Positions 1 to 29,973 are shown, counted from the stretch's first letter. The stretch is 32,000 bases of DNA from Geobacter sulfurreducens PCA (GCF_000007985.2 NC_002939.5:3780001-3812000), one strand, 5' to 3'. Numbers and translations are program-made. Notes: generated by a model from the sequence alone, not told the origin.

Positions 1-207
1 AACGGGACAGGCCGCGGAGCAGAGGTAGCAGGCCACGCAGCGCTCTCCGCCGTCCGGGTCGCGGGTGAGAACGATCCGCGCCCGGTAGCGGGGCGCCGGC
101 GTCCGCTTCACCTCCGGGTACTCCACGGTCACCGGCCTGCGGAAGATATGCTTCCAGGTCACGAAAAGCCCGGTGGCGATGGCTTTGAAATCGGTCAGTA
201 TCGGCAT
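1..207 (-). CDS. nuoI: NADH-quinone oxidoreductase subunit I, 5' part only; the gene runs off the left edge
   Basis: Manual reverse translation from ATG (205..207) gives MPILTDFKAIATGLFVTWKHIFRRPVTVEYPEVKRTPAPRYRARIVLTRDPDGGERCVACYLCSAACPV. The YPE..PRYRxRIVLTRDPDGxERCVACxLCxxACP block is the canonical NuoI N-terminus with the first 4Fe-4S motif. It is absent from the ORF track because it is truncated. Confidence 0.9.
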   Translation of the reverse strand, partial: MPILTDFKAIATGLFVTWKHIFRRPVTVEYPEVKRTPAPRYRARIVLTRDPDGGERCVACYLCSAACPV

Positions 208-218
208 GGTTCACGGGA

Positions 219-248
219 GTGGAGGGGCTCCGGCCAGAGCCCCTCCAC
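219..248 (-). promoter_or_regulatory. Intercistronic GC-rich stem-loop (12-bp perfect stem, 6-nt loop) between the ankyrin gene and nuoI, flanked by 8-bp direct repeats
   Basis: GTGGAGGGGCTC (219..230) and GAGCCCCTCCAC (237..248) are exact reverse complements around loop CGGCCA. GGTTCACG occurs at 208..215 and 250..257. No U-tract follows on the mRNA strand. Confidence 0.6.
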
Positions 249-263
249 CGGTTCACGCGGCGG

Positions 264-689
264 TCAGGCGGTGCCCGACTTGGCCCGTTGCGCCTTTTTG
301 ATCAGGTCCAGAGTGTCAGGGTGTCCGTTCGCTTCCGCATAGGTCAGGGCCGTATTGCCCAGCTTCATCTTGGCCAGGGGGTCGGCGCCGGCCGTCAGCA
401 GGTCTTCCACGCATTCGTTGCATCCGTAATTCGCAGCCAGCATGAGGGGGGTGTGCCATTCGAGATCCCGCGGGTCCACCTGCGCGCCCGCCTCAAGCAG
501 CGCCCGGATGGCTGCAGCCTGACCGTTGGCCGCCGCGTAGTGGAGGGCGGTCTTGCCCTTCTCGCTTTTGGCCTCCAGGTCGGCGCCACGGCCGATGAGA
601 TCCCTGATCGCATCCACATCCCCTGCCTTCGCCGCGTCGATGAGCGGCGTATGCCCGTGCTTGTCCTTGGTATTCACGTTCTCAACCAT
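264..689 (-). CDS. Ankyrin-repeat protein (about 4 repeats, no signal peptide)
   Basis: 141-aa ORF with repeated ankyrin consensus: GHTPLIDAAKAGDVDAIRDLIGRGADLEA, GKTALHYAAANGQAAAIRALLEAGAQVD, WHTPLMLAANYGCNECVEDLLTAGADP, GNTALTYAEANGH. ATG at 689 is preceded by AAAGGAGGA. Confidence 0.9.
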   Translation of the reverse strand: MVENVNTKDKHGHTPLIDAAKAGDVDAIRDLIGRGADLEAKSEKGKTALHYAAANGQAAAIRALLEAGAQVDPRDLEWHTPLMLAANYGCNECVEDLLTAGADPLAKMKLGNTALTYAEANGHPDTLDLIKKAQRAKSGTA

Positions 690-830
690 GACACGTCCTC
701 CTTTGCTTCGTTGCGTGTTGGATTCTCTTCTGCGGAACGATGACCAGTGTGCGTGTGTCAGACCGTGATGCGGTTGTGCGTGGTGCGAACGTTCTCTCCC
801 CCCTTTCTCTCGATGGTGTTTGTCTCTCCG

Positions 831-1820
831 TTACACGAACATCAGTACCCATCCGGTGATCAGGATGTTGAGCAGTGCCAGCGGCGTCAGCACCTTCCAT
901 CCCAGGTGCATGAGCTGATCGTAGCGCAACCGCGGCAGGGTTCCCCGCATCCAGATGAAAAAGAAGGCGAAGGCGAGAGTCTTCACCGAAAACCAGACGA
1001 AGGGAGGCAGCAGCGGCCCCTGCCAGCCGCCCAGAAAGAAGGTGGTTGCCAAACCGCCGAGGACGATGATGTTGATGTACTCGCCCACGAAAAAGAGGCC
1101 GAAACGCATCCCCGAGTACTCGGTGTGGAACCCCGCCACCAGCTCTCCCTCCGCCTCGGGGATGTCAAAGGGTATCCGCTTGCATTCGGCCGCGATGCTG
1201 ATGAGAAAGATCAGAAAGGCCACGGGCTGGTAGGCGATGAACCAGACCCCCTCCTGGGCCGCCACGATGTCCGACAGCCGGAGCGACCCGGCCAGCATCA
1301 CCGTGGGCACCAGGGACAGCCCCATGGAGAGCTCGTAGGAGATGAGCTGGGCCAGCCCCCGGATGGAGCCCAGGAGCGCGTACTTGGAGTTGGACGCCCA
1401 TCCCCCCAGGGCCACACCATACACCGCAATGGAGGAGAGTGCCAAGAAGAAGAGGAGCCCCACGTTCAGATCCGCCACCTGAAGCGGGATCTCACGGCCG
1501 AGAATCGTGACCGGCGCCCCGAAGGGGATCACCGCAAAGGTGAGGATCGCCGGGACGGCAGCCATGGCCGGGGCCAGATAGAAGAGCCACTTGTCGGCGC
1601 CGGCGGGGCGGAAATCCTCCTTGGTCAGGAGTTTGATGAGATCCGCCAGGGGCTGCAGCAGGCCGAAGGGGCCCACCCGGTTCGGCCCCTTGCGGTCCTG
1701 GATCCAGGCCAGGAGCCGCCGCTCGGCGAAGACCAGGTAGGCCGCCAGGGTGAGCACCACGAAGAAGATCAGGGCGATCTTGGCCCCGTGGATGGCTATG
1801 TCGAGAGCAACTCCGTTCAT
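831..1820 (-). CDS. nuoH: NADH-quinone oxidoreductase subunit H
   Basis: 329 aa, polytopic, with NuoH/ND1 signatures: ERRLLAWIQDRKGPNRVGPFGLLQPLADLIKL, ECKRIPFDIPEAEGELVAGFHTEYSGMRFGLFF, RGTLPRLRYDQLM. ATG at 1818..1820. Confidence 0.97.
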   Translation of the reverse strand: MNGVALDIAIHGAKIALIFFVVLTLAAYLVFAERRLLAWIQDRKGPNRVGPFGLLQPLADLIKLLTKEDFRPAGADKWLFYLAPAMAAVPAILTFAVIPFGAPVTILGREIPLQVADLNVGLLFFLALSSIAVYGVALGGWASNSKYALLGSIRGLAQLISYELSMGLSLVPTVMLAGSLRLSDIVAAQEGVWFIAYQPVAFLIFLISIAAECKRIPFDIPEAEGELVAGFHTEYSGMRFGLFFVGEYINIIVLGGLATTFFLGGWQGPLLPPFVWFSVKTLAFAFFFIWMRGTLPRLRYDQLMHLGWKVLTPLALLNILITGWVLMFV

Positions 1821-3418
1821 GACTCCCCGCCGGGTTCCGGCAACGTGAAGTAAAACGTGGCGCCGGCGCCGGGCGTTCCCTCCGCCCAGATGCGCCCTCC
1901 ATGGCGGTCGATGATCCGCTTGACCGTGGCAAGGCCGATGCCGGTCCCCTCGAACGCGCGCGCGTCGTGGAGGCGCTCGAAGGGCTGAAAAAGCTTGTCC
2001 TTGTGGGCCATGTCAAAGCCGACGCCGTTGTCGCGGATAAAGTAGAGCCGCTCTCCCTCGCCCTCGCAACGGCCGAACTCGATGACTGCGTTCTCCTTTG
2101 GGGCCGTATATTTCCAGGCGTTCCTAAGGATATTCTCCATGGCAGCCCGCAGCAACCCCGGATCCCCCTCGACCGTCAGGCCGTCGGCTATGATGAAATC
2201 CACTGCCCGACCGGGCTCCCCGTCACTCAGCTCACGGGCAATGCTCCGCGCCAGGCGGCTCAGGTTCACCGCCTCGTGGACGACCTCACCCTTCACGCTC
2301 CGGGAAAACCTGAGAAGATCGTCTATCAGCTGTTCCATCCGCGTTGCCAGCCGGATCATACGGATGAGGATGTCCCGCCCCTCCCCCTCCAGGCGGTCGG
2401 CGTAGTCCTCATAGAGCATGCGGCTGTACCCGTCCAGCCTCCGGAGCGGGCCGCGCAGGTCGTGAGAAACTGAAAAACCGAACGCCTCAAGTTCGCGGTT
2501 GGCGGTTTCCAGGGCCTCGGTGCGCTCCCGCACGCGCTGCTCCAAATCCGCGTAGACCCGCACATTTTCCATGGCCACCGACGTCGTGTCGGCAAGGGCC
2601 TGAATGACGCTGATCTCCTGCTCGGAGGGGCGATGGCGCCTGGCCCAGTAGGTGCCGATGGCGCCGATGGGGTCTTCCCCCCGGATGGGGACCATGGCAA
2701 GGCTCTGCACGAACGTAGGGCGATAGGCCTCCACGGGTATCCGCTGATCCTGGTAGATATCCTCGATGACCGCCGCCTGCCGGTTGAGCATGACCCACCC
2801 GCTGATGCAGCGCTCAAGGGGGAACCGGAGCCCCTTCCAGAGCGGGGCGATGGCATCTTCGTCCGCATAGAAGCAGTTACCGTTTTCCCGCAGGACAAAC
2901 GTGGCCCCGTCGGCGCTCACCAACTCCCGGGCGGCAGTCCGGACCACCGCCGTAATCTCGTCGAGGCTGCGGGCCCGGGAAAGCTCCTGCACTACGCGGA
3001 CAAGCCGCTCCATGAGCCCGCCGAGCCGCCGGTTCTCCTCCTGGGCCGCCATGCGGTCGGTAATGTCCCGATTGCTCCCCCGCCGGCCGAGAAACGTTCC
3101 GGCGCCGTCGTGCACCGGCTGACAGTGATGACTGATCCAACGCACCTCACCGGTGCGCGTGATGATGCGGAAGTCAATGGGGCAGACCCCCTCTCGATTG
3201 GCCAGAGCATCCGTCAGATGGCTCTCCACGGCCTCCCGGTCCTCAGGATGGACAATCCGCCGCAGCAGGCCCGCTTCACCCATGAACTCGTCGGGACGGT
3301 ACCCGGTAATCCGCTCGCAGGCCGGGGAGACATAGCGACAGGCCCCCTCGGGGTCGAGCCAGAACTCCCAGTCAGCTGCGAAATCGAGCAGCAATTTGCA
3401 GATGTGTTCGCTCTCCAT
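1817..3418 (-). CDS. Soluble sensor histidine kinase, PAS-GAF-HisKA-HATPase_c
   Basis: The track ORF starts at TTG 3430. I prefer ATG 3418 (MESEHICK..) behind GAGGAAG. H-box FGFSVSHDLRGPL, N-box ILRNAWKYT, G1 DNGVGFD, G2 GTGIGLATVKR. PAS and GAF-like blocks lie upstream and no TM segment is present. Stop TGA 1817..1819 overlaps the nuoH ATG (ATGA). Confidence 0.9.
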   Translation of the reverse strand: MESEHICKLLLDFAADWEFWLDPEGACRYVSPACERITGYRPDEFMGEAGLLRRIVHPEDREAVESHLTDALANREGVCPIDFRIITRTGEVRWISHHCQPVHDGAGTFLGRRGSNRDITDRMAAQEENRRLGGLMERLVRVVQELSRARSLDEITAVVRTAARELVSADGATFVLRENGNCFYADEDAIAPLWKGLRFPLERCISGWVMLNRQAAVIEDIYQDQRIPVEAYRPTFVQSLAMVPIRGEDPIGAIGTYWARRHRPSEQEISVIQALADTTSVAMENVRVYADLEQRVRERTEALETANRELEAFGFSVSHDLRGPLRRLDGYSRMLYEDYADRLEGEGRDILIRMIRLATRMEQLIDDLLRFSRSVKGEVVHEAVNLSRLARSIARELSDGEPGRAVDFIIADGLTVEGDPGLLRAAMENILRNAWKYTAPKENAVIEFGRCEGEGERLYFIRDNGVGFDMAHKDKLFQPFERLHDARAFEGTGIGLATVKRIIDRHGGRIWAEGTPGAGATFYFTLPEPGGES

Positions 3419-3582
3419 CGGCTTCCTCAATGGTGTGACGCAATGCCGGGAGATGGCCCCCGAATGTATGCACCGCCGCGCCGGGCTGTTTCTTCCACGC
3501 GGTTATGACGGCGGAACATGCCATTTACAGTGAACTGGTATTCCCGGGCGCCTGTTCGCTTTGCATGCCCGTTTCGCCTCAA

Positions 3583-3924
3583 CTATGCCTTTTTCACAAA
3601 TTCCGACTTCAACTGCATGGCACCGACGCCGTCGATCTTGCAGTCGATGTCATGGTCCCCCTCCACGAGCCGGATGTTCCGCACCTTGGTTCCGACCTTG
3701 ACAACCGAGGACGAGCCTTTGATCTTCAGATCCTTGATCACCGTGACGGAGTCGCCATCACTGAGCACGTTGCCGAAGGCATCGCGCACAACGCGCTGCT
3801 CTTCCGGGCTCTCTCCCGGCGCAGCCGTCGGCCACTCATGGGCGCATTCCGGGCAGACGTACATGGTCCCGTCTTCATAGGTGTATTCCGAACTGCATTG
3901 TGGGCATGCGGGTAAACTGCTCAT
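3583..3924 (-). CDS. yjdM: YjdM/PhnA-family zinc-ribbon protein
   Basis: From ATG 3924 (SD AAGGAG): [31 protein letters not shown]...[57 protein letters not shown]. This is near-colinear with E. coli PhnA/YjdM as I recall it. The upstream in-frame part of the track ORF (to 4011) overlaps nuoG and is discarded. Confidence 0.9.
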
Positions 3925-3949
3925 GGTGCTCCTTTTTCTGTTTGGTAAG

Positions 3950-5983
3950 TCAGACTCCAGGAGCCGCCGCGTAGTGCACGGTCCTCTGGAAGTACCTGTT
4001 GAGTAAACCACTCTTGCCAGTTATCGAGATGTGGTTCAGTTTCGCGCAACATTTTTCACTACAGCACCGTTTCCCCTCTCCCTTCCGGGTCGAGGTCCCG
4101 CAGCAGCTCCCACCGTCCGGCACCCCCCCCGTCACCGCTTCGCCCCCGAACCGCTCCACCAGCTCGGCCACGAACCGCCAAGCGGGGCGGAGTTCCCCGC
4201 CGGGGGGGGCGCTGCGGTGCACCCGCGGCGGATGGAACGGCGCCGGCTTGTCGGGGGAGGCGTGGTAGCGGGCCGGGAGCCCCCGAATCGGAAGTCCGGG
4301 CGCCATGACCTTCCGGAACCGCTGGGCGCGCCCTTCAAAGTTGACATAGGTGCCGTCCGTCTCCACCCAGGCGGCGGTGGGGATGACGATCTGGGCACGC
4401 CTGACCGTTTCCGTCGGAAGCCAGTCAGCGGCCACCACGAACGGCACGCCGGCCAGGAGCGCCTCGGGGATGTCGGCCTCTACAGCGATGATCCCCTTCA
4501 CTCTCCCCGAGGCAACGGCCTCGGCCAGGGTAACCGCTCCGTGCTCCTTCGCCAGAAGACCCGCCCCAAAGGCGTTGGGACCGGGAAAGAGGTACGCGAT
4601 TTTGGCATCAGTATGGGCAAGTAACTCAGTGGCTGCGGGAGGATTGTTCCTGGTGCCGCAGATGACCACAGCCCTCTCGAATATCGCCAGAGGCACCTCT
4701 TCAATAATGCTGAGCTCGATGGCCTCGATGGAAACGGCTCGGGCTTGCTCAAGGGGCGCATGCGTCCCCACCAGGAAGACCGGTGCGCCGCTGCGCCATG
4801 CCTGCCGGACCGCCAGAAGCATCATCGGCCCTTCGTCCCGGAGGTCCGACTCGAGGATGACAATGCAGTCGGCCTTCCGTACGTCCGCCATGGAGGCCGC
4901 CCTGCCGTCGGCAAGGAGGGAAACGGCGGCGGCTACCCGCTCCCCTTCGTCCCGCTCGGCAAAGTAACAAAGGTACTCCGTCCCGATGAGCCCGGCCAGC
5001 CGTGCCAGAAGGACACTCCCCTCCAGCGGGAGACGGGGTGAGCCGACCAGGGCCAAGCGGCCGGGGCCGTAGAGTTCCATGAACTCTTCAATCCGGAGCA
5101 TGGTGGCGTCGATGGCCGCGGCCCATGAAACCTCCTCCCCGTCCACCAGCGGCACCCTCGGCCGCACCGGGTCGTTCACGGCGGCATTGGAGAACCGCCC
5201 CCGGTCGCAGATGAAGTGGCCGTTCACGGCGGGGTTCTCCCGGGCCATGGTCTTGAGGAGTTCCCGGTAGCGGGCCGCCGGCACGGTGTTGCAGCCGAGG
5301 GAACACCAGGGGCAGACCGAAGGGGCCATCTCGTAGTCCCAGTAACGGGCCCGGAACCGGGCGGTCTTGTCGGTAAAGACCCCGGTGGGGCAGATGTCGA
5401 CGAGATTTCCCGAGAAGGGGGATTCGAGCTCCCCCTCCTCAAACCGGCCGTAGTAGACCCGCCGGGCGCTCCCCATGACCCCGAAGTCGCTGCCGCCGGC
5501 ATACTCCTGGTAGAAGCGGACGCACCGGTAGCACTGGATGCAGCGGTTCATCTCGTGCTGAATGTGCGGCCCCAGATCCTGGTTCACGTGGGTCCGTTTT
5601 TTCCCCTCAAAGCGGCGGATGCCGTGGCCGCCGGCCACGGTGTAGTCCTGAAGGAGGCACTCCCCCCCCTCGTCGCAGACCGGGCAGTCGTGGGGGTGAT
5701 TGGTCATGAGCCACTCGATGACCAGGCTCCGCATCTTCAAGGCCTCGGGGTCGGTGGTGGAGACCACCATGCCGTCCTGGGCCGGGAGCATGCACGACAT
5801 CTGGATCCCCTTCACAGGTCCGTCCAGCAGCTTCACGGCACAGAGCCGGCAGGCCCCCACGCTGCCGAGGGCCGGGTGATAGCAGAAGTGCGGAATCCAG
5901 ATTCCCGCGGTCTTGGCCGCCTCCAGCACGCTGGTGCCGGGAGGGACTTCGACCAGTATGTGATCGATGGTCAGTTTGGGCAT
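3950..5983 (-). CDS. nuoG: NADH-quinone oxidoreductase subunit G (short form with an atypical C-terminal tail)
   Basis: 677 aa. N-terminal 2Fe-2S ([15 protein letters not shown]), [33 protein letters not shown] and CPWCSLGC cluster motifs, then a molybdopterin-like domain. The last ~55 codons after a G8 run are unusual (see findings). Confidence 0.9.
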
Positions 5984-5992
5984 GGTTTCAGG

Positions 5993-6565
5993 TTACAGGA
6001 TAATCACCCGTGGTTGTTCCCCCTTGTCGTACTGGAGCGCCATGACGAGACTTCCCCAGCCAAGGGTGATGATGATGCCGATGCCGAGCAGGAGCGCCCC
6101 CACGGCTGTAAAGATGCTCCCCACGAGTACCGCTAGAATCCAGCCGGCCAGGTCTCCCCTTATGGTTTCGAGGCTCCACCGCAAGGCGTCCATGAACTTC
6201 ATCCGCCGGTCAATAATGCCGTACATGCCGGGCGCGACCACCACCGACAGGACGAACCCCGCCACCTGACCGATGACCGGCACGTGGTTCAGGGCGAACA
6301 TGGCCACGACCACGAGCAGAAAGTAGACGAAAAGATCGCCGAAGCAATCCCAGGCCCGGAAGATGTCCCCCGGCTCCGCCTTTCCCCCGCGGGCCACCTT
6401 GAGCACCGCGCGGATGTAGCCGGCCAGGAAGCCGATGTTGGCCACAGGAATCCACGCCACCAGGGAGAAGACCAGGGAGAGGACGAGGAGATTGCCGAAA
6501 TTGCCCGTCCAAAGCCTCGTGGCCCGGGTCACGAGGCCGCCGAAATCGTCAGATGGTGCCGTCAT
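5993..6565 (-). CDS. Integral membrane protein of unknown function (about 4-5 TM), embedded between nuoF and nuoG
   Basis: Only the last 190 aa of track ORF 5993..7438 are credible (MTAPSDDFGGLVTRATRLW...). ATG 6563..6565 overlaps the nuoF stop TGA 6562..6564 (ATGA). Long hydrophobic stretches: LLVLSLVFSLVAWIPVANIGFLAGYI, LFVYFLLVVVAMFAL, ILAVLVGSIFTAVGALLLGIGIIITLGW. Confidence 0.75.
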   Translation of the reverse strand: MTAPSDDFGGLVTRATRLWTGNFGNLLVLSLVFSLVAWIPVANIGFLAGYIRAVLKVARGGKAEPGDIFRAWDCFGDLFVYFLLVVVAMFALNHVPVIGQVAGFVLSVVVAPGMYGIIDRRMKFMDALRWSLETIRGDLAGWILAVLVGSIFTAVGALLLGIGIIITLGWGSLVMALQYDKGEQPRVIIL

Positions 6566-7833
6566 CCCTTTCCTCCGAGGGGGCAGCGCCCCATCACGAT
6601 GTGCTCCCGGATCTCGTCCTCGAAGAGCCGCAGGAGCCCCTCCACCGGCCCCATGGCACCGGGGGCCAGGGGACAGAAGGCGTAGTTCAGGTACTGGACA
6701 TGCTCCCGCAGGATGGCGATGTGCTCCTCCCGCCCGGCGCCCGCCTCGATCCGGGCCAGGACGTCCTTCACAAAGGGGAGCCCTTCCCGGCAGGGGGTAC
6801 ACCAGCCGCACGACTCCCGAGCGTAAAAGGACACCAGGTTCAGGGTTGCCGCCACCATGCAGGTGTTCCGGTCGAAGACCACGATGCCGCCGGTGCCGAG
6901 CCGGGAGCCGGCCCTTGCCACGGCATCGAAGTCCATGGGGACGTTCCAGTGCTCCCGGGTAAAGAACGGCGTGGACGCCCCGCCGGGTATGCACGCCTTG
7001 AACTCCCGCCCCGGCAGCATGCCGCCGCAGGGGCCGTCGATGATCTCGCCCAGGCTCATCCCCAGGGGAAGCTCGAAGCAGGCGGCGTTGTTCACATGTC
7101 CGCTCACGCAGAAGAGCTTGGTACCGGCCGCTTCGGAGATTCTCGCCAGCCCCTTGAACCAGGCGGCGCCGTTGGCCACGATAGCCGGGATGTTGGCCAG
7201 GGTCTCCACGTTGTTCACCACCGTGGGGCGCCCCCAGAGCCCTTTCACTGCCGGGAAGGGGGGTTTGCTCCGCGGGTTGGCCCGCCTCCCCTCCAGCGCG
7301 TTCATGAGGGCTGTTTCCTCGCCACAGATGTAACGCCCGGCGGACTGGTGGACGTCCAGGTCCAGGGAGAAACCGGAGCCGAGGATGTTCTTCCCCAGCA
7401 GGCCCGCTTCCTTTGCCTCGGCAATGGCGCGCCGGCAATTCTCCGCCGCCTCTTCGTAGCCGCGGCGGATGAAGATGAAGGCATGGGCCACACCGATGGC
7501 ATAAGCGGCCAGGGTCATCCCCTCCACCAGAGAATAGGGGTTCGCCTCCAGGAGTATCCGGTCCTTGTAGGTGCCCGGCTCCATCTCGTCGCAGTTACAG
7601 ATGAGATAACGGGGGCCTGGGATGTCCCGCGGCACGAAGGACCACTTCTTCCCGGTGGGGAACCCGGCCCCGCCCCGGCCCCGCAGATTGGCGTCGATCA
7701 CCACCTGCTGGACATCGTTGGGCGACATGCCGGAAAGGGCCTTCTCCAGGGCCGCGAAGCCTCCCTCCGCCCGGTACTCGGCAAAGGTTACGCACCGGCC
7801 GGGACGGTTATGTCGGAAGAGAACCTGTTCCAT
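6562..7833 (-). CDS. nuoF: NADH-quinone oxidoreductase subunit F (NADH/FMN-binding)
   Basis: 423 aa. GRGGAGFPTGKKWSF, CNCDEMEPGTYKDR, ESCGWCTPCREG (4Fe-4S). ATG 7831..7833. Confidence 0.97.
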   Translation of the reverse strand: MEQVLFRHNRPGRCVTFAEYRAEGGFAALEKALSGMSPNDVQQVVIDANLRGRGGAGFPTGKKWSFVPRDIPGPRYLICNCDEMEPGTYKDRILLEANPYSLVEGMTLAAYAIGVAHAFIFIRRGYEEAAENCRRAIAEAKEAGLLGKNILGSGFSLDLDVHQSAGRYICGEETALMNALEGRRANPRSKPPFPAVKGLWGRPTVVNNVETLANIPAIVANGAAWFKGLARISEAAGTKLFCVSGHVNNAACFELPLGMSLGEIIDGPCGGMLPGREFKACIPGGASTPFFTREHWNVPMDFDAVARAGSRLGTGGIVVFDRNTCMVAATLNLVSFYARESCGWCTPCREGLPFVKDVLARIEAGAGREEHIAILREHVQYLNYAFCPLAPGAMGPVEGLLRLFEDEIREHIVMGRCPLGGKG

Positions 7834-7907
7834 TTACCCCTTTGTTCACCCCCCTGCTTCGCTCTCGTTCGCTTCCCCCTACAAGGCAGGGGGGACCGAG
7901 GGGGGTC

Positions 7908-8252
7908 TTATTGCTCAACAAGAATGTCCTTCAGCACCACCGCGTTGTTGTGCTGTTCGTCCTTTGCCGCGAACAGGAGCGTTACCGTCCCGCCGGCCGC
8001 CAGTTTCCTGAGTCCATCCAGGAGTTCCGCCTTCGCGTCCAACTCCCGCCGGTACCGCTCCCGGAACTCGTCCCACCGGGCCGGGTCGTGGCCGAACCAC
8101 TGCCGCAGCTCGTCGCTGGGGGCGATCTCCTTCAGCCACTCGTCGATGCGGGCCTTGTCTTTCGCGATACCCCGGGGCCAGAGCCGGTCCACCAGGACGC
8201 GCGTGCCGTCCTCGGTTGCCGGTTCGTCGTAGATCCGCTTTACTCGCACCAT
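7908..8252 (-). CDS. DUF488 family protein (YeaO-like)
   Basis: 114 aa. VKRIYDEPATEDGTRVLVDRLWPRGIAKDKARIDEWLKEIAPSDELRQWF resembles E. coli YeaO as I recall it (KRVYD..DGYRILVDRLWPRGI..DEW.KEI.PS.ELR). ATG 8252 lies 3 nt after the nuoE stop, with SD GGAGGG inside the nuoE 3' end. Confidence 0.85.
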   Translation of the reverse strand: MVRVKRIYDEPATEDGTRVLVDRLWPRGIAKDKARIDEWLKEIAPSDELRQWFGHDPARWDEFRERYRRELDAKAELLDGLRKLAAGGTVTLLFAAKDEQHNNAVVLKDILVEQ

Positions 8253-8255
8253 CGT

Positions 8256-8753
8256 TCATCCCTCCGCGGCTGCAAGCTGCCGCCGCTCAGTCGCCAGGAT
8301 CTCCCCGGCCCGCTCCAGCGTCACCCGGCCGTGGAGGGTGTCGCCGACCATGAGCGTCGGGGCTTCGCCGCAGTTGCCAAGGCAGCAGCAGGGCAGAAGC
8401 GTAAAGAGCCCGTCCGCCGTGGTTCCCCCCGGTTCGATGTTCAGCGCCGCTGCCAGGTGCGCCATGAGGCTCTCGCCCCCCAGGGCCCAGCAAGAAATGG
8501 AGTCGCAGACGTGGATCACCCGCTTTCCCACGGGGCGGCGGTAGATCATCTCGTAGAAGGTGGCCAGCTCCTCCACCTGGAGGGGGGTGAGTCCCAGGAG
8601 CTCCGCCGCCTCCCCCACTGCCTCGTCGGTGAGCCAGCCGTAGTGGCGCTGCAGCGCTTTCATCACGTCCACGGCCGCCTCACGGCTGGTGACGGCGTGA
8701 GCGACGCGGGCCTGAAGTTCCTTTTTGAGAAGCTCCGAGATCATCGGCGTCAC
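8256..8753 (-). CDS. nuoE: NADH-quinone oxidoreductase subunit E (2Fe-2S)
   Basis: 165 aa. [13 protein letters not shown] ... [18 protein letters not shown] is a typical NuoE thioredoxin-like 2Fe-2S motif. GTG start 8751..8753 overlaps the nuoBCD stop (GTGA). Confidence 0.95.
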
Positions 8754-11128
8754 CTGTCCAAATCCGCCAGCACGAAGTCAATGGACCCGATGATGGCCAG
8801 AAAATCCGCCACGAGCCACCCCCGGCTCATGAGGGGGAGGGCCTGGATGTGCGGGAAGCTCGGCGTCTTGATCCGCACCCGGTACGGCACGTTGAGGCCG
8901 TCGCTCACCACGAAGTAGCCGTTCTCCCCCTTGGGCGCTTCGATGGCGCTATAGTTCTCCCCCTTCGGCGGCGCCATTCCCCGTGTGGCATTGATGAAAT
9001 GGTGAATCAGGGATTCGATGTCGTGGAGGGCGTCCCGCTTCTTGGGCAGCACGTAACGGTAGTCATCGGTGATCCAGCGCCCGGCCGGCATCTCCTTCCA
9101 GCACTGGCGGACGATGTGGAGCGACTGGCGGATCTCCTCGATCCGGACCCGATAGCGGGCCCAGCAATCCCCCCCCTCCTCGGTCGGAACCTCGAAGTGG
9201 AAGTGCTGGTAGCCGTTATAGGGGATCTTTTTCCGCAGGTCCCATTCCACGCCGCAGGCCCGCAGGTTCGGGCCGGTGATTCCCCACTCCAGGGCCTCGT
9301 CCCCGGTGATGACGCCCACCCCTTTCAGCCGCTCCCGGAAAATGGGGTTCCCCTTCAGGAGATCCTCGTACTCCTTGAGCCGGCCCGGCATCCAGTCAAG
9401 GAACGCCTTCACCGCCCCGTCCCACCCCTCGGGGAGATCGTCGGCCACGCCGCCGATCCGGAACCAGGAGGGGTGCATCCGGCCACCGGTGACCATCTCC
9501 ACAATGTCGAAGATCTTCTCCCGGTCGGTGAACGTGTAGAAGACTGGGGTCATGGCCCCCACGTCGGCGGCAAAGGTGCCGAGCCAGACCAGATGGTTGG
9601 CGATCCGGAAGAGCTCAGCCAGCATGACCCGGATGGCGATGCCCCGGTCCGGCACGGTGATGCCGCAGAGCCGCTCCACGCTGTTCACGTAGGCCAGGTT
9701 GTTCTGGACCCCGGCCAGGTAGTCGATCCGGTCGGTGTAGGGGATGAACTGGTTCCAGTGCTGGCGCTCGCCGATCTTCTCGGCACCCCGGTGGTGGTAG
9801 CCGATGTCGGTATCCATGTCCACGATCTCTTCGCCGTCCAGCTTGAGGACGAAGCGGATGATGCCGTGAGTGCCGGGGTGCTGGGGCCCCAGGTTCAGGA
9901 TCAGTGTTTCTTCGTCAATTCTATCGAAGAAATCAGAGGCAGGCAGGGCCTGATGGCGCCGGGCGTCGTCCGTGGTGTAGGGATGCATCTCCGTTGCCCG
10001 GAAGGGGTGATTTTTCCGCAGCGGGTGCCCCTCCCAGTCGGGTGGCATGAGGATGCGGCGCAGGTTCGGGTGGCCGGCGAACTGGATGCCGTACATGTCG
10101 AAGGCCTCCCGCTCGTACCAGTCGGCCGCCGGGAAGACGCTTGTCGCGCTCGGGATCTCCGGCGTATCCCCTCGCAACTCGGCCTTGATCCGCAGATGTC
10201 CGGGGATGTGGAAGTTCAGTAGGTGGTAATTGACGGTGAAGTCCGGGAACCGCGACCGCTCCCGGCGGCACGACTCATCCACGCAGGCCACGTCCTCCAG
10301 ACGCCGGAAAGGAGCGGCGCTCCGGGTTTTCAGGTGGCGCAGCACGTCCGGCAGCAGCTCCGGCGGGCAGCGGTAGGTGAGCATGTCGGTAGCGTGATCG
10401 TCCCGCACCACCCGGTGGCCGAAGGCCGTTTCCAGTTCGCCGGCAAGACCGAAGTCGGGGAACTGGTGCTTTGGGGCCGGCGGGCGCCACATCTCGTCCG
10501 AGCGGGGCATTGGGAAATGGGGGTGCTGCACCGAAGTCCCCCTGATGGCGATCCCCTCCATGCCGGGTCCCCGGGTGTCGCGGGACTTGGTCACCCCGTC
10601 CACCAGCACCGGCCGGGTGGTTCCCTCGCTCCCGCCGGCCAAGTGGAGGACCTTCCTGGCGGGGCGTTCTTCCCTCCTGATTTTTTCCTGGAGCAGCATC
10701 AGCCCCTGGAGGAATGCCTCGGGGCGCGGGGGACAGCCGGGGACGTGGACATCCACCGGGATGATCTGGTTCACCCCCTGGACCACGCTGTAGACGTCAT
10801 ACATGCCGCCGGAGTTGGCGCAACTCCCCATGGAGATGACCCACTTGGGCTCGGCCATCTGCTCGTAGAGCCGGAGGATTGACGGGGCCATCTTCTTGAA
10901 GACCGTGCCGGCGATGACCATGAGGTCCGCCTCCCGGGGGGTGCCCCGGAGCACCTCGGCCCCGAAGCGGGAAACGTCGTAGCGGGAGGTGAAGGAGGTC
11001 ATCATCTCGACGAAACAGCAGGAGAGCCCGAAGAACATGGGCCAGAGGGAATTGGCCCGGCCCCAGTTGATCAGGTCGTCCAGGCTGGCCAGAATGATGT
11101 TGTTCTGTGGGACCTCAGTCTCGGACAT
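8750..11128 (-). CDS. nuoBCD: Fused NADH-quinone oxidoreductase subunits B, C and D in one polypeptide
   Basis: One uninterrupted frame. NuoB part: [38 protein letters not shown]. About 100-aa linker. NuoC part: [32 protein letters not shown]. NuoD part: [38 protein letters not shown]. Preferred start is ATG 11128 (MSETEV..) behind GGAGGGG; the track start 11143 is also possible. Confidence 0.93.
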
Positions 11129-11543
11129 GGCCCCTCCGTGCACGGGACGGTCCCCAGTCGAGGCCCCCCTTCAGCCAGAGCCAGACGAGGCCGAGAAGGA
11201 GGATAACGATGAAGAAGGTGATATGGACGAGCCCTTGAAGGCCCAGTTCGCGCCAGGCCGTGGCCCAGGCGAAGATAAAGGCCGCCTCCACGTCGAAGAC
11301 GATGAAGAAGATGGCAATGAGGTAGAACGGGACCGGATAGGCGAGCCGGGCCGAACCGGTGGGGATTGCGCCCGATTCGTAGGGGAGTTCCTTGTTGCGG
11401 TTCGTGGTCTTGGCGCCGAGCCACCAGGCAGCCAGGAGAAGCACGCCGATCAGAATGGATGCCGCAAGGGTGTAGAGCGCCAGGGGAAGGAACTCGGGCG
11501 GCAACGAGGGGAAGAGGGAATGTGAAATGCCGGCTGGTTGCAT
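11115..11543 (-). CDS. nuoA: NADH-quinone oxidoreductase subunit A
   Basis: 142 aa, 3 [42 protein letters not shown] is the NuoA/ND3 signature. ATG 11543 behind AAGGAGAG. The 3' end overlaps nuoBCD by 14 nt. Confidence 0.95.
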
Positions 11544-11581
11544 TCTACTCTCCTTGGCGTCGAGTGAAATGCCGAGTTCAT

Positions 11582-11609
11582 ACTCTAGCGCAATCGGGAC
11601 TCATGTCAA
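11582..11609 (-). promoter_or_regulatory. Candidate sigma70-type promoter for the nuo locus
   Basis: Minus strand reads TTGACA (11609..11604), 16-nt spacer, TAGAGT (11587..11582). The predicted start is about 30 nt upstream of the nuoA ATG. Motif reading only. Confidence 0.45.
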
Positions 11610-11642
11610 CGGTTTTGAGGGAAACGCCGATGCCCGGCCACA

Positions 11643-12095
11643 TTAGCGCAGGGCATCGCGGACCCGGGAAAGCACCGCCTCTCTGGGTAGTGCACCGCTC
11701 CAGGTTGCGAGCACCTGCCCCCGTCGCAGGAGCACCAGGGCCGGAATCCCCCGGATGCCGAAGCGGGCTGCCAGCTGCGGGTTCTCCTGGGTGTTCACCT
11801 GAACCACTGCCGCCGTGCCGGCAAGCTCCCGCGCAACCTCCCGCACCACCGGTGCGAAGTCCCGGCAGTGGGGTCACCAGGGGGCCCAGAATTCAACCAG
11901 AACGGGGCCATGATAGCCAGCGACGAACGGGTCGAAACTCCGGTCGGTAAGCGGGACCGGCTGGAAATAGAGGGGCGGGAGCACACCGCGGCAGCTGCCG
12001 CAGCGGCCCGCAACCCCTTCCCTGGATGCCGGCACCCGGTTGCTCGTGCCACAGGCGGGGCAGGCAACGAGAAATGACTGGCCGCTCTCTGCCAT
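11643..12095 (-). CDS. trxC: Thioredoxin 2 (TrxC type with N-terminal Zn finger) containing an in-frame UGA at the first active-site position; candidate selenoprotein (WUPHC)
   Basis: Track ORFs 11874..12095 and 11643..11849 share a frame and are separated only by TGA 11874..11876. Joined product: ..ACPACG..CGSCRG..GPVLVEFWAPW-U-PHCRDFAPVV...FGIRGIPALVLL.., colinear with E. coli TrxC, with UGA in place of the first Cys of WCGPC. Confidence 0.75.
11840..11873 (-). promoter_or_regulatory. SECIS-like stem-loop immediately 3' of the in-frame UGA
   Basis: mRNA: UGA CCC CACUGCCGG [GACUUCGCA] CCGGUGGUG C GGG. Nine contiguous pairs (two G.U) plus three more after a 1-nt bulge. The 9-nt apical loop begins with G, 13 nt after the UGA. 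Confidence 0.55.
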
Positions 12096-12104
12096 GGGAG
12101 GTTC

Positions 12105-12572
12105 CTACCCCTGCTTGGCGAGGAACTCCGCCACCTGCGCCGGATGGGCCTCTGCCTTGGCCACCTTGGACCAGTGCTTCACCACCGTCCCGTCGGGACC
12201 CACCACCACTGTGGAGCGGATCGTGCCCATAGTAGTCTTGCCGTACTGGACCTTCTCGCCGAAGGCACCGTAGGCGGTCATCATGGCGGCGTCCGGATCC
12301 GACAGAAGCGTGAAGGGGAGGCCGAAGGCCTTGATGAACTTATCGTGGGACGCGAGGCTGTCTTTGCTGACGCCGAGAAGAACAACGCCGCGCGCCATCA
12401 GATCCTGGTGCAGATCCCGGAAGCCGCAGGCCTCCTTGGTGCATCCCGGAGTATTGTCCCGGGGATAGAAATAGATGACGACCGTTTTCCCTGCATAGTC
12501 TTTCAGGGAGTGTTTTTTCCCGTCACTTCCCTCCAGGGTGAAGTCGGGAGCTTTTTTGCCTTCCAGCGACAT
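12105..12572 (-). CDS. bcp: Peroxiredoxin, Bcp/PrxQ type
   Basis: From ATG 12572 (SD AAGGAGG): MSLEGKKAPDFTLEGSDGKKHSLKDYAGKTVVIYFYPRDNTPGCTKEACGFRD. The PGCTxExC motif is typical of Bcp. Stop is 9 nt before the trxC ATG. Confidence 0.93.
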   Translation of the reverse strand: MSLEGKKAPDFTLEGSDGKKHSLKDYAGKTVVIYFYPRDNTPGCTKEACGFRDLHQDLMARGVVLLGVSKDSLASHDKFIKAFGLPFTLLSDPDAAMMTAYGAFGEKVQYGKTTMGTIRSTVVVGPDGTVVKHWSKVAKAEAHPAQVAEFLAKQG

Positions 12573-12634
12573 GCCTGCCTCCTTGGTGAATCGAATCCGA
12601 CAGGAAAAACAGTTTACCCCATTCCCGGTCGTTG

Positions 12635-13846
12635 TCACCCCTGCCCATTCAGGAGCGCGGCCACCTCCTCGGCGTAAACCATTTCCTCATCGGTGGGAAT
12701 CACGTAGACCGCAACAGGCGAGTCATCGGCGCTGACCCGCTCCTCCCGGTCCACGGAACGGGCAGTTCGGTTCCGCTCCCGGTCGAGCCGGATGCCGAAG
12801 CATGCCATGTCGGCGAGGGCCTTTTCCCGCACGAGCCATTCCCCCTCCCCCGAGGCCGCGCTGAAGACCACGGCGTCGAGCCGGCCGAGGGCCGCGGCGT
12901 AGCCGCCGATGTGCTTCCGGAGTCGGTAGGCCTCCATCTCCAGAGCCAGGAGGCACCGCTCATCCCCCGCGATGGCCCGGGCCAGAAACGCCGACCGGTC
13001 CAGCTTGAGGCCGGTGATGCCCGCGGCACCGCTCCGCTGGTTGAGAATCCGGTCCAGATCACGGGGCGAGAGCTGTTCTTCCTGCATCATGAACGGGGGA
13101 ATGCCCGGGTCGATGGAGCCGCAACGGGTTCCCATCATGGTCCCTTCCAGCGGCGTGAGACCCATGCTCGTATCAATGGAGCACCCTCCCTCCACGGCGC
13201 AAAGGGAAATCCCATTGCCGATGTGGATGGTGACCAGATTACAGAGGGCCGGCTCGCGCCCCAGGAGCGCCGCCCCCCGCCGCGCCGCATGACAATGGGA
13301 GGCGCCGTGGAAGCCGTAGCGTCTCACGCCGTGCTGCTCGTACCACTCCCAGGGGAGAGGGTAGAGGTAGGCATGGAGCGGCATTGCCTGGTGGAATGCC
13401 GTGTCGAAGACTGCCACGTGGGGAATGCCGGGCAGAGTAGCCATGGCTCCCTCGATCCCCGCCAGGTTCGGGGGAATATGGAGCGGCGCCAGTTCCTCCA
13501 CGGATCTGACCGCCTCGATGACCTTCCCGTCGATGGGAACCGAGGAGGTAAACCGCTCCCCCCCGTGAACGACCCGGTGCCCCACGGCGGTGATCTGCTC
13601 GACCCGGGAGAGGGGACCCTCCAGGGGGTGGGTCAGGGTGGCGAGAATAAGGGCCACGGCTGCACCGAAACTGGAGCAGTCAGACTCCAGGTGATAGGGG
13701 TCCCGCCCCGGTACCTCCATAGAGATGAACGAGTCGCCCAGCTCGATCCGGTCCACGTCCCCCCGGGCGAGGACGGTCCGCGTAGACCAGTCGAAGAGCT
13801 GGAAGTGGATGGAAAAGCCCCGGCAATTGAGAATCAGGATAATCAT
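12635..13846 (-). CDS. Acetate/propionate kinase family protein, divergent paralogue
   Basis: From ATG 13846: MIILILNCRGFSIHFQL.., GHRVVHGG, APLHIPPN, VAVFDTAFH, YGFHGASH, HIGNGIS, DTSMGLTPLEG, GTRCGSIDP. The usual N-terminal GSSS and C-terminal GIGEN motifs are replaced by RGFS and SGEG. Confidence 0.85.
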   Translation of the reverse strand: MIILILNCRGFSIHFQLFDWSTRTVLARGDVDRIELGDSFISMEVPGRDPYHLESDCSSFGAAVALILATLTHPLEGPLSRVEQITAVGHRVVHGGERFTSSVPIDGKVIEAVRSVEELAPLHIPPNLAGIEGAMATLPGIPHVAVFDTAFHQAMPLHAYLYPLPWEWYEQHGVRRYGFHGASHCHAARRGAALLGREPALCNLVTIHIGNGISLCAVEGGCSIDTSMGLTPLEGTMMGTRCGSIDPGIPPFMMQEEQLSPRDLDRILNQRSGAAGITGLKLDRSAFLARAIAGDERCLLALEMEAYRLRKHIGGYAAALGRLDAVVFSAASGEGEWLVREKALADMACFGIRLDRERNRTARSVDREERVSADDSPVAVYVIPTDEEMVYAEEVAALLNGQG

Positions 13847-23888: not shown

Positions 23889-24446
23889 TCAGAGGGAAAC
23901 CGGTGTGATTGAGCGCACCGAGATCTCCACGTTCAGCTCCTTCCTGATTTCTTCGAGCATGGCCGACACCTGGTCCACCGAGATCCCCTCCGGCAGCGCG
24001 GCCTCGATCATCATCACATAGACCGGTTCACCTTTTTTCCCTACCAACTTTGTGTTGAGGTCGGTGATATTGATGCTGCGCTCGGCCAGCTCCTTGGTCA
24101 CCCGGTAGACGATGCCCGGCTTGTCCGACCCGTAGACCGACAGCATGCAGATTTCCCCTTCGGGGGCGCGGTACTCGGCCTCGTCGGGGGTCATTGTACG
24201 GGCGGAGACGGTGAGGCCCATATCCTCGCCAAGCACCCGGAATTCTTCGAGCAGCCTGCTCTTGGTGAACGGCTTGGGGTGGGAGATGATGAGGATCATG
24301 GCGAACTCCCCTCCCAGCATGGTGGAGCTGGAGTCCTCGATGTTGCAGCCGAGTCGGTAGAGAATGCCGGTAGTCCCGGCGACGATGCCGGGCCGGTCCT
24401 TGCCGACGACGGAAAGGGCGAAGTGGACAACTGAATCCTTGGTCAT
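23889..24446 (-). CDS. Tandem ACT-domain protein (GcvR-like)
   Basis: From ATG 24446 (SD GGGAGG). Two repeats of the ACT pattern: VVGKDRPGIVAGTTGILYRLGCNIED and VYGSDKPGIVYRVTKELAERSINITD. Confidence 0.8.
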   Translation of the reverse strand: MTKDSVVHFALSVVGKDRPGIVAGTTGILYRLGCNIEDSSSTMLGGEFAMILIISHPKPFTKSRLLEEFRVLGEDMGLTVSARTMTPDEAEYRAPEGEICMLSVYGSDKPGIVYRVTKELAERSINITDLNTKLVGKKGEPVYVMMIEAALPEGISVDQVSAMLEEIRKELNVEISVRSITPVSL

Positions 24447-24502
24447 GGTGTGCCTCCCGGGGTCGATGCCCGGCAAAAGTGTCTGCCGATTTGGTTCATT
24501 AA

Positions 24503-24531
24503 TCTATAGCAGATGCGGGAGGCCATGGCAA
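24503..24531 (-). promoter_or_regulatory. Candidate sigma70 promoter for the ACT-def-permease unit
   Basis: Minus strand reads TTGCCA (24531..24526), 17-nt spacer, TATAGA (24508..24503), about 55 nt upstream of the ACT gene ATG. Confidence 0.4.
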
Positions 24532-24537
24532 GACCGG

Positions 24538-24840
24538 CTACCCGAGCCCCAGCCGCTCCCGGGCCGTCTCCACGAGGCAGTCGAAGACCATCTCGCGGCT
24601 TTCGATGAAGCGTGGCATGTCCTGGTGCATGATGTCTTCGAGCAGGTTAAGGACCCGGCCATCGCTGGAGCCCAGTTCGTTCATCACCGCTTCCATCATC
24701 GCCACAACTTCATAGAGGTCGTCCCGGTTGAAGGGGGACGGATCGGGCTTGCACCGGAACTTGGGCTGGTCGCGGTTGACCACGTCCTTGGGATATTTGT
24801 AAAAGAGGTCAGACGCCTTGAGCTTTACCGGCATGGCCAT
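24538..24840 (-). CDS. Hypothetical 100-aa protein, family not recognised
   Basis: From ATG 24840 (SD AAGGAGA): MAMPVKLKASDLFYKYPKDVVNRDQPKFRCKPDPSPFNRDDLYEVVAMMEAVMNEL.. Codon style is coding-like. No motif I can name. Confidence 0.6.
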   Translation of the reverse strand: MAMPVKLKASDLFYKYPKDVVNRDQPKFRCKPDPSPFNRDDLYEVVAMMEAVMNELGSSDGRVLNLLEDIMHQDMPRFIESREMVFDCLVETARERLGLG

Positions 24841-24888
24841 TGTTCTCCTTCCGCTTTGATCAATCCCGCGCGCACCACTGGCCACCGC

Positions 24889-25896
24889 TCAAGTGACGCA
24901 GACGAAATCCTCTCCCTCACGCAAGCCCGCCCTGCGGGCCCAGGCCCGAACTCCATCCCGCGCCCCCCGGGTTCCCACGGTAACGAGGATCTTTTCAGCG
25001 CCCGCCCTGACGTCATCCGGTGCCGTCACCGGCGCCCCGTGGAGGATTCGACCCTGTTTCCGCGGGTCCACGTCGAGCCATCGGCCCACCCGCACCCCCT
25101 CCCGCGCCAGGGCTCGTTGCCACGCCCTCCCCTCCAGCCCGGCCCCGGCCAGGGTGACGTTGTCCACACCCAGCAGGAACCCCTGACACAGGTGATGGAT
25201 CTTGCAGGCGCGGAAGGCATCGGCGGCATATTCCCCCATGGTGCGGGTCGCGCGCTCGGGGCGCTCCCGCCAGAAGAACAGCACCTCCGGCAGCCGCGTG
25301 AACCTGACCCCCCCGGCTGCAAGCCTCAGCCAGAGGTCGTAATCTTCTGCCCATCCGGTCTTCCGGTAGCCTCCGGCATCTGTCAGAGCCTGCCGGCGAG
25401 CCATGACACTCGGGTGGACGACCGGCGACTCCACAAAGCGGTCACGCATGATTTCCTCGTGAGTCAGCAGGCCGTTTTGCCACTCTTCATAGGCACGCAT
25501 GCCGAGTCCCACCGAGTGTCGGGGAAAGTGGCGAAACCGGGTGGCCACGAGTCCCAGGCCGGGATCCGCGTCAAGGGCAGCGGCCTGGCGTTCCAGCCTC
25601 TGCGGGTGGGATATGTCGTCACCGTCCATGCGGGCCACGAGTTCCGCACGGCAGTGGGCGAGGCCGTAATTCAGGGCATCTACCAGTCCCGCGCCCGCGT
25701 TGTTGAACACCCTCACCCGCCGGTCTCGGGCCGCGGCCACGCGCAACAGCTCCGGCGTGTCGTCGGTGGAGCCGTCGTCCACGACAATGAGTTCCCATGC
25801 CGTCAGGGACTGCCGGCACAGGGAGGCCAGGGCAGCGGGCAGGAAGCGCTCTTCGTTGCGGACCGGCATGAGAATCGACACGCGGGGTGCGCTCAC
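24889..25896 (-). CDS. Family 2 glycosyltransferase with a C-terminal extension
   Basis: 335 aa. VSILMPVRNEERFLPAALASLCRQS..ELIVVDDGSTDDT..ARMDGDDISHPQRLERQ are GT-A/GT2 signatures (DDGS, DxD-like DGDD). GTG start 25894..25896 overlaps the thioesterase stop (GTGA). Confidence 0.9.
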   Translation of the reverse strand: MSAPRVSILMPVRNEERFLPAALASLCRQSLTAWELIVVDDGSTDDTPELLRVAAARDRRVRVFNNAGAGLVDALNYGLAHCRAELVARMDGDDISHPQRLERQAAALDADPGLGLVATRFRHFPRHSVGLGMRAYEEWQNGLLTHEEIMRDRFVESPVVHPSVMARRQALTDAGGYRKTGWAEDYDLWLRLAAGGVRFTRLPEVLFFWRERPERATRTMGEYAADAFRACKIHHLCQGFLLGVDNVTLAGAGLEGRAWQRALAREGVRVGRWLDVDPRKQGRILHGAPVTAPDDVRAGAEKILVTVGTRGARDGVRAWARRAGLREGEDFVCVT

Positions 25897-26285
25897 GGCA
25901 TCTCCGGCATCAAGGCTTGGATCAGCTCGGCGGGGAGACGTTTGGGCTTCATCCCCGGCCCGACGCAGACGAGGGTCACCTTGCCCCCAACCAGCAGCTT
26001 GCCGTCCAGGCAGCGCACCACCTGCTGTCCCACGGTAAATGAGGTTTTGCCCACCTCAAGCACCTCGGTCTCAACCCGGACAAGATCGTCCAGCACTGCC
26101 GGGGCACGAAAGTCGATCTCCATCCGCACGACCGGAAAAATGCAGCCTCGGTCGGCCAGCTCCCGGACCGAAAGTCCGCGTTCCCGCAGGAACTCGCATC
26201 GTCCCCGCTCGAAAAAGCCCAGGTAGCGCGCATGATAGACTACGCCGCCGGCGTCGGTGTCCTCATAGTAGATACGGAATTCCAC
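25893..26285 (-). CDS. YbgC/4HBT-type acyl-CoA thioesterase
   Basis: 130 aa from GTG 26285 (SD GAGGAG): MEFRIYYEDTDAGGVVYHARYLGFFERGRCEFLRERG is the hot-dog-fold YbgC signature. Confidence 0.88.
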   Translation of the reverse strand: MEFRIYYEDTDAGGVVYHARYLGFFERGRCEFLRERGLSVRELADRGCIFPVVRMEIDFRAPAVLDDLVRVETEVLEVGKTSFTVGQQVVRCLDGKLLVGGKVTLVCVGPGMKPKRLPAELIQALMPEMP

Positions 26286-26328: not shown

Positions 26329-26347
26329 ATGGCAGATGGGGCTGCGG

Positions 26348-27088: not shown

Positions 27089-27379
27089 TATTTTAATCTC
27101 CCCTTTCCTCGACTGGCTAGCAGCGGGACTCCGCGGCACCTTACGGTTCACGGGCACCGCGTTTTAATGATATCACCTGCTGGTCGGCACGCAACAGCAG
27201 GGCTGACTGTACGGGAGGCGGGTCCATGGGCGAAAAACCCCGTGAAGGGCTGCAGAGGGGCGGCTTTCAAATTTTAGCTTTGAGCGGCTTTTAAGGGACC
27301 ACCAAGGCCGCCTCCTCCCCCGGCAGCAAAAACCGGCGAGAAGGCTGTTTCGCCCACCAGATTGTTAGATTGTGTAAAA

Positions 27380-29913: not shown

Positions 29914-29960
29914 GACGTCCCGCCGCCTCCTTTCCCCTTCGTTTCACATCAGAGCTTCAA

Positions 29961-29973
29961 GGATACTGTATCC
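29961..29973. promoter_or_regulatory. Perfect 13-bp palindrome in the mnmE-mnmG spacer (candidate operator)
   Basis: GGATAC-T-GTATCC, about 50 nt upstream of the mnmG ATG. Confidence 0.35.

Follow-up and report, generated by a model that had tools for sequence, protein, structure and literature searches.

Complex I genes do not always form an unbroken set. The nuo clusters of Paracoccus and Rhodobacter capsulatus hold unrelated open reading frames (ORFs), and disruption of these interspersed ORFs has no effect on complex I, leaving both its assembly and its activity unaffected (PMC1959517). The original prediction for the locus studied here, which described canonical nuo operons as contiguous sets of structural genes, was therefore too strong on this point. 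In mycobacteria the nuo operon encodes an orphan response regulator that is a structural subunit of complex I (PMC10068793). Here we analyse the second complex I cluster, nuo-2, of Geobacter sulfurreducens PCA, which is of clade E and encodes a fused NuoBCD. It occupies positions 1-11543 of a stretch of 32,000 nucleotides (nt) from the chromosome (NC_002939.5:3780001-3812000), the whole of which is called the window, and GSU3434-3445 of the cluster lie within it. According to ORFs, their translations and their families in Pfam and NCBIfam, twelve genes on the minus strand are transcribed in the order nuoA, nuoBCD, nuoE, DUF488, nuoF, membrane protein, nuoG, yjdM, kinase, nuoH, ankyrin and nuoI. 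Coordinates and family matches thus agree with the prediction that five non-nuo genes are interleaved with the nuo genes in this order.

Are these five genes parts of the enzyme, or do they only travel with it? The probable explanation, in our judgement, is operon hitch-hiking, in which five functional but unrelated genes were inserted at junctions of the long and weakly constrained nuo-2 cluster and are not parts of the enzyme. As passengers they are likely to be co-expressed with nuo-2. The two complex I clusters of the organism can be compared in this respect. Transposon sequencing (Tn-seq) showed that GSU3429-3445 (type E) is not needed for growth with fumarate, while insertions in GSU0338-0351 (nuo-1) cause major defects (Chan et al., PMC5585712). 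In the published table nuo-1 runs through 14 consecutive locus tags, from nuoA to nuoN, and the expectation that the inserts would be absent from the other nuo cluster of the genome is borne out. An essential cluster that is contiguous and a dispensable one that carries inserts fit a relaxed constraint on the organisation of nuo-2. The likely reason for its tolerance of insertions is that Nuo-2 is dispensable, and the comparison suggests that insertions are tolerated better in operons that can be spared than in essential ones.

The clusters of relatives were collected with NuoBCD as an unbiased anchor. This gave 80 fused-nuoBCD loci with 76-92% identity from Geobacterales, Desulfuromonadales and Desulfobulbales; they are the best-scoring of 509 hits, many are contigs of metagenome-assembled genomes (MAGs), and G. 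sulfurreducens itself is not among them. A cluster was called insert-free if no junction gap exceeded 250 nt, where gap thresholds and tblastn boundaries are approximate and the G|H gaps come out about 110 nt too short, the length reference being a frameshifted NuoG of 677 amino acids (aa). By this measure 17 of the 45 loci that are complete from nuoA to nuoI have no insert, and uninterrupted clusters are found in Desulfopila, Desulforhopalus, Desulfocapsaceae and many Desulfuromonadaceae. Inserts are commoner at the E|F (24/53), H|I (21/46) and F|G (14/47) junctions, and rarer at BCD|E (8/57), G|H (5/47), A|BCD (3/79), I|J (1/42) and J|K (0/42). The presence of each insert was scored by tblastn with family representatives in 47 clusters. 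The ankyrin gene was found in about 20 of them, at the H|I junction, and DUF488 in about 12, at E|F; the membrane protein was found in 5, and yjdM with the kinase only in G. sulfurreducens and one sister locus (L090). Position is therefore not conserved among relatives for the inserts as a group, as a set of subunits would have required. Accessory subunits should accompany the complex across the clade, but a good part of the clusters are insert-free and the inserts that do occur are patchy.

Other clusters carry genes that G. sulfurreducens lacks or arrange them differently. Monohaem cytochrome c genes, not present in the G. sulfurreducens cluster, occur in about 15 of the 47 clusters, a pair of V4R and HAMP-GGDEF genes in 7-8, and DUF456 in 3. 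A locus of the G. metallireducens type reads nuoF, membrane protein, V4R, GGDEF, nuoG, nuoH, without yjdM and the kinase. Further cargo includes a type II NADH dehydrogenase (NDH-2), a PIN toxin, a PD-(D/E)XK nuclease, an AAA/DUF4143 ATPase, IS1595 and IS66 transposases, an 8xMP membrane protein and a hybrid kinase on the opposite strand, together with a ParE-like protein whose match is weak and just under the cut-off of Pfam. The NDH-2 gene (Pyr_redox_2 and NDH2_C domains) was observed between nuoG and nuoH of Geomobilimonas luticola (L015:18110-19402). In 18 loci (L048, L049, L053, L055, L057, L058, L061, L067, L069, L070, L073-L075, L077, L078, L080, L083 and L085) nuoA-nuoBCD is on its own, and none of nuoE, F, G, H, I, J and K follows in the 3-10 kb of sequence available downstream. 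Several of these have a terminator-like hairpin directly 3' of nuoBCD, so that in some lineages the cluster is also split.

What becomes of the passengers where the nuo genes are missing? With the ankyrin family as anchor in metagenomes, 80 loci were obtained. The ankyrin gene adjoins nuoH and/or nuoI in 61 of these; an EngB-like GTPase gene lies upstream of it in 6, and other contexts are seen in about 13, such as a place downstream of hemB with a universal stress protein gene on one side and efp on the other. In one genome (L052) the nuo cluster is uninterrupted and the ankyrin orthologue stands alone about 75 kb away, a stand-alone context that recurs in a second contig. In Pelotalea chapellei (L092) the EngB-like GTPase neighbourhood borders a nuoH-ank-nuoI-J-K-L-M cluster. 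The PNP/DUF2064/GCHY-1/EngB-like GTPase group in L092, L091 and a P0286 contig is next to either nuoH-ank-nuoI-J-K-L-M or a lone ankyrin gene followed by panDCB, a hint that the ankyrin gene stayed in place while the nuo genes around it were lost or relocated.

Six metagenome loci go further and can be described as ghost operons, in which passengers remain in their original order and the nuo genes are gone. The most complete reads NuoBCD fragment (51 aa), NuoE fragment (48 aa), cytochrome c, V4R, GGDEF, NuoG N-terminal piece (35 aa), ankyrin, NuoI fragment (47 aa) and NuoJ fragment (63 aa) (L105). Two others read DUF456, V4R, GGDEF, NuoH fragment (30 aa), ankyrin and NuoI fragment (55 aa) (L117 and L119); one has DUF456, V4R, GGDEF and ankyrin (L103), and two have DUF456 and ankyrin (L107 and L114). 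The fragments of 30-63 aa in L105, L117 and L119 are recognisable Nuo pieces, such as the C-terminal cluster motif of NuoE. The ankyrin genes of the ghost loci are intact, with a ratio of nonsynonymous to synonymous substitution rates (dN/dS) of 0.07-0.18 at dS up to 1.7. Intact passengers, and an ankyrin gene with low dN/dS, indicate that these passengers are still under selection without Nuo-2. As far as gene content and substitution rates can show it, the functions of ankyrin, V4R/GGDEF, DUF456 and cytochrome c do not depend on Nuo-2; unlike accessory subunits, these genes are retained after loss of the complex. By analogy, the same may hold for DUF488, the membrane protein, YjdM and the kinase.

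All five inserts in the window are intact genes, and selection on them is purifying: in comparison with three relatives and one sister species their dN/dS is 0.05-0.17, and that of the flanking nuo genes 0.04-0.26. The DUF488 protein (GSU3442, 7908..8252), the first passenger in transcription order, matches its family profile over the full length (PF22752, 149 bits; PF04343, 124 bits) and has dN/dS of 0.12-0.17; the literature on DUF488 gave nothing on function that bears on the nuo-2 context. The second is a polytopic membrane protein of 190 aa (GSU3440, 5993..6565) without a Pfam or NCBIfam family. It has about 90 homologues, and its AlphaFold2 model is all-helical with a predicted local distance difference test (pLDDT) score of 85. 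Its sole match in the PDB is weak (CysZ, 3tx3, TM 0.50), and the fold search returned no similarity to any complex I subunit. Exact copies of its sequence are found in G. sulfurreducens genomes, for example CP002031.1, where the cluster goes on with nuoI, J, K, L and M, while longer homologues with an N-terminal zinc ribbon lie outside nuo and adjoin an alpha-2-macroglobulin or an integrase gene. The third passenger, YjdM/PhnA (GSU3438, 3583..3924), consists of an N-terminal zinc ribbon and a C-terminal PhnA domain (PF08274, PF03831) and scores 168 bits with TIGR00686, above the curated cut-off of 80.2. The fourth (GSU3437, 1817..3418) is a cytoplasmic sensor histidine kinase in which PAS and GAF domains precede HisKA (PF00512, E 2e-9) and HATPase_c (PF02518, E 4e-23). 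Its nearest homologues are 100% and 93% identical, the latter being in the same yjdM-kinase-nuoH arrangement of the sister locus, and identity then falls to 54-62% in many phyla. The fifth is an ankyrin-repeat protein of 141 aa (GSU3435, 264..689; Ank families), seen in the supplement of a published proteome (7 peptides, 59% coverage).

From these patterns a stepwise scenario can be proposed. The ancestral cluster would have been compact, and Geobacteraceae would have gained genes one after another at the permissive junctions E|F, F|G, G|H and H|I. The inserts differ in their spread, ankyrin being the widest, cytochrome c and DUF488 also widespread, the membrane protein and V4R with GGDEF narrower, and yjdM and the kinase confined to the G. 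sulfurreducens lineage. Once inside, the passengers would share a transcript with the nuo genes that starts in the promoter region 5' of nuoA. Three of them have acquired junctions that the sequence directly shows to be tight or overlapping and that allow translational coupling. Some lineages would later have deleted nuo genes and retained the passengers.

How do other explanations fare? That the inserts are spurious reading frames of high-GC DNA or decaying pseudogenes has next to no probability. The window has 63-67% GC and many long spurious ORFs, but four of the five inserts match curated families above their cut-offs, the fifth, the membrane protein, has its many homologues and a confident fold, and the dN/dS values and the mass spectrometry of the ankyrin protein complete the refutation. 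In the original prediction Nuo-2 is a specialised complex I to which the five proteins belong physically or functionally, as accessory, assembly or regulatory subunits. The tight or overlapping junctions and the purifying selection on all five speak for it, as do the keeping of the ankyrin gene at H|I across Geobacteraceae with its product seen by proteomics, and the mycobacterial response regulator that is encoded in the operon and acts as a subunit. We nevertheless regard it as quite improbable, and as a claim about all five it is mostly unsupported, given the insert-free clusters, the restriction of yjdM and the kinase to a species group, the transposases, toxins and nucleases that occupy the same junctions elsewhere, the distant membrane-protein homologues that are unlinked to nuo, and the ankyrin and other passengers that outlast nuo deletion or stand alone. 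A third explanation accepts that the passengers are not subunits and makes their co-expression with Nuo-2 adaptive: for instance, at times of Nuo-2 synthesis the PAS-GAF kinase, or V4R/GGDEF in relatives, would monitor the redox or NADH state, and under these conditions the ankyrin protein would act on a partner as chaperone or tether. Signalling and redox genes do recur in the cargo (histidine kinases, GGDEF, cytochromes c, NDH-2), the kinase/nuoH and nuoF/membrane-protein pairs overlap, and conservation with the sister species (L090) is about 90% in the yjdM-kinase spacer but does not extend to the nuoG-yjdM spacer. Geobacter genomes are generally rich in signalling genes, though, so random draws would include them; selfish elements are also among the cargo; no Response_reg domain is listed for any gene of the nuo-2 cluster, the neighbours of the kinase being yjdM and nuoH; and we found no expression data. 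We hold adaptive co-expression to be rather unlikely.

Several points weigh against operon hitch-hiking itself. At three junctions the spacing is tight or the genes overlap, which implies that expression together with nuo genes has been selected for. The conservation of the ankyrin gene at H|I is stronger than expected for a random passenger, and beside it the proteomic detection of this protein has to be counted; the mycobacterial subunit is a precedent that leaves some residual probability for the ankyrin protein as a part of Nuo-2. Insert frequencies are approximate because they come from the best 80 of 509 hits and from many MAG contigs. As to the insertion mechanism, a repeat search of positions 1-12700 found no direct or inverted repeats bracketing any insert. 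No transposase or integrase is found among the genes of the G. sulfurreducens nuo-2 cluster, transposases being seen only in clusters of other species, and the inserts here lack the flanking repeats or adjacent recombinase expected of mobile gene cassettes of an integron-like or transposon-borne kind. Literature searches by locus tag (GSU3435, 3437, 3438, 3440 and 3442) and by topic returned no paper that discusses the inserts, nor any transcript, co-purification or knockout data on the five genes, and the text of the Tn-seq supplements does not list them. Under hitch-hiking, the only plausible candidate for a link to Nuo-2 is the ankyrin protein, the most widely conserved insert. A bolder proposal would be that in Geobacteraceae the GSU3435 family serves the fused-NuoBCD complex I as a supernumerary subunit or as an assembly factor, docking near NuoH/NuoI at the junction of membrane and peripheral arms, with survival in ghost loci reflecting a second role, and that more broadly the nuo-2 junctions are a previously undescribed kind of insertion hot spot that recruits genes into a respiratory operon and is able to outlast it. 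We regard these ideas, taken jointly, as unlikely.

The nuo genes of the window identify the cluster. Published tables assign GSU3445 to nuoA-2, 3444 to nuoBCD, 3443 to nuoE-2, 3441 to nuoF-2, 3439 to nuoG-2, 3436 to nuoH-2 and 3434 to nuoI-2, and the numbers missing from this nuo-2 list (GSU3435, 3437, 3438, 3440, 3442) are the five inserted genes. NuoA-2 (11115..11543) matches PF00507 (E 3e-31). The fused nuoBCD gene (8750..11128) scores 1633 bits with NCBIfam NF009808 (cut-off 1156) over residues 4-792, and its three Pfam domains follow in order, so that B, C and D form a single polypeptide. NuoE-2 (8256..8744; PF01257, E 6e-43) has 162 aa in public calls, nuoF-2 (6562..7833) carries Complex1_51K, SLBB and NADH_4Fe-4S on the identical public gene, nuoG-2 (3950..5983) reads as 677 aa in the window and matches TIGR01973 (500 bits), and nuoH-2 (831..1820) matches PF00146 (E 2e-128). 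NuoI-2 was recognised by translation of its 5' part (1..207), where it leaves the window; the full gene is in an identical public locus (L004), which has nuoF, I, J, K, L and M, and nuoN is known from the published locus-tag table. The core order A, B/C/D, E, F, G, H, I and on to N, as expected of a fused-NuoBCD nuo cluster, is thus complete.

Most junctions given in the original prediction were confirmed when read again. The overlap of nuoA with nuoBCD is 14 nt, nuoE and DUF488 are 3 nt apart, nuoF and the membrane protein overlap as ATGA, 9 nt separate the membrane protein from nuoG, and the kinase and nuoH overlap as ATGA. The larger spacers hold as well, with 74 nt between DUF488 and nuoF, 164 nt between yjdM and the kinase (given as about 160), 141 nt between nuoH and ankyrin (given as 140) and 56 nt between ankyrin and nuoI. 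The claimed GTGA overlap of nuoBCD and nuoE stands if nuoE starts at the GTG at 8753, but with the ATG at 8744 used by public calls it becomes a gap of 5 nt. The claim of 25 nt between nuoG and yjdM fell, being the effect of a homopolymer at 4123..4130, eight C (G8 on the coding strand) where alignment with three other loci (L002, L004 and L005) has nine. With nine bases, as in KN400-type and other strains, NuoG has 641 aa and ends at 4059, and the canonical spacer is 134 nt; the eight-base allele of the window shifts the 3' frame of nuoG, extends NuoG to 677 aa with an odd Cys-rich tail and leaves 25 nt. NuoG of sister species has 642-643 aa, and the 3' end of nuoG in the sister locus L090 is in the same frame as the 641-aa reading. 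The eight-base allele is also present in an independent assembly (L001), and hence it is probably real in this strain lineage. That the five genes are built into the architecture of the operon was upheld by their tight or overlapping spacing and by the lack, in the scan, of terminator-like sites in the spacers.

Scans for internal promoters and terminators found none in the intergenic spacers, all terminator-like sites of the scan lying outside them. The sole promoter candidate upstream of the cluster, a sigma-70-like TTGACA-16-TAGAGT on the minus strand at 11582..11609 (10/12 consensus matches), is upstream of nuoA and presumably serves the cluster. The nuoH-ankyrin spacer (690-832, minus strand) is rich in purines, and 199 of 200 shuffled versions fold better than it does (z +2.5); its 3' part with the Shine-Dalgarno sequence is kept in close relatives. 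This spacer may serve as an unstructured leader. Between the ankyrin gene and nuoI there is a GC-rich hairpin at 221..246 (minus strand) without a U tract. The spacer, folded as 62 nt, has a minimum free energy of -32 kcal/mol (z -3.4) with a 13-bp stem as its core. Relatives have a hairpin at this place too, and in L009, L010, L015, L016, L037 and L044 a U tract comes after it; judged from these sequences, the post-ankyrin hairpin is present in many species and in several looks like a terminator. An Rfam scan of the whole window gave no match, and accordingly no riboswitch or known RNA element is seen in the spacers.

Some neighbouring features may also be recorded. Directly upstream of nuoA lies a gene for a zinc-ribbon thioredoxin (11643-12095, minus strand) with an in-frame TGA at 11874-11876, exactly at the first active-site position (W-*-P-H-C); some public annotations give one protein of 150 aa, and this is probably a selenocysteine thioredoxin. 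The genes mnmG (gidA) and mnmE (trmE) at 28030-31490 on the minus strand fit the location of the locus, which is near the end of the chromosome as numbered (about 3.68 of 3.71 Mb in KN400). Two long plus-strand ORFs, 24364-26226 (620 aa) and 26336-27277 (313 aa), lack a Pfam match at E 1e-5 and overlap long ORFs of the minus strand; in DNA of such high GC they may be spurious.

What would passenger status of these genes mean? G. sulfurreducens is the model organism in work on extracellular electron transfer. Treating the five embedded genes as passengers keeps them from being annotated as Nuo subunits and shifts the focus to the ankyrin protein. The comparative pattern, from an uninterrupted ancestor through stepwise gain to loss of host genes with passengers kept, also offers a clean natural example of gene gain in an operon followed by decay.

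Compared with known systems, nuo-2 shares with the E. coli-type clade E nuoA-N cluster its gene order and the fusion of adjacent peripheral-arm subunits. In E. coli the fusion is limited to C and D, and to our knowledge the operon has no inserts, whereas G. sulfurreducens nuo-2 encodes B, C and D as one protein (NF009808) and carries inserts at five junctions. With Mycobacterium smegmatis it has in common a two-component signalling protein encoded in the nuo operon, there MSMEG_2064, which lies 5' of nuoA, has orthologues in several pathogenic nuo-bearing mycobacteria and is present in the cryo-electron microscopy structure (PMC10068793). The Geobacter kinase, unlike MSMEG_2064, is encoded between nuoG and nuoH and does not occur beyond one species group. 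Likeness to the nqo/nuo clusters of Paracoccus denitrificans and Rhodobacter capsulatus lies in structural genes interleaved with ORFs not known as subunits. The differences are that Geobacteraceae are not Alphaproteobacteria, that the cargo is other, and that the Geobacter cluster encodes a second, dispensable isozyme with a fused NuoBCD, whose inserts can be ordered by their spread among relatives and outlive the nuo genes.

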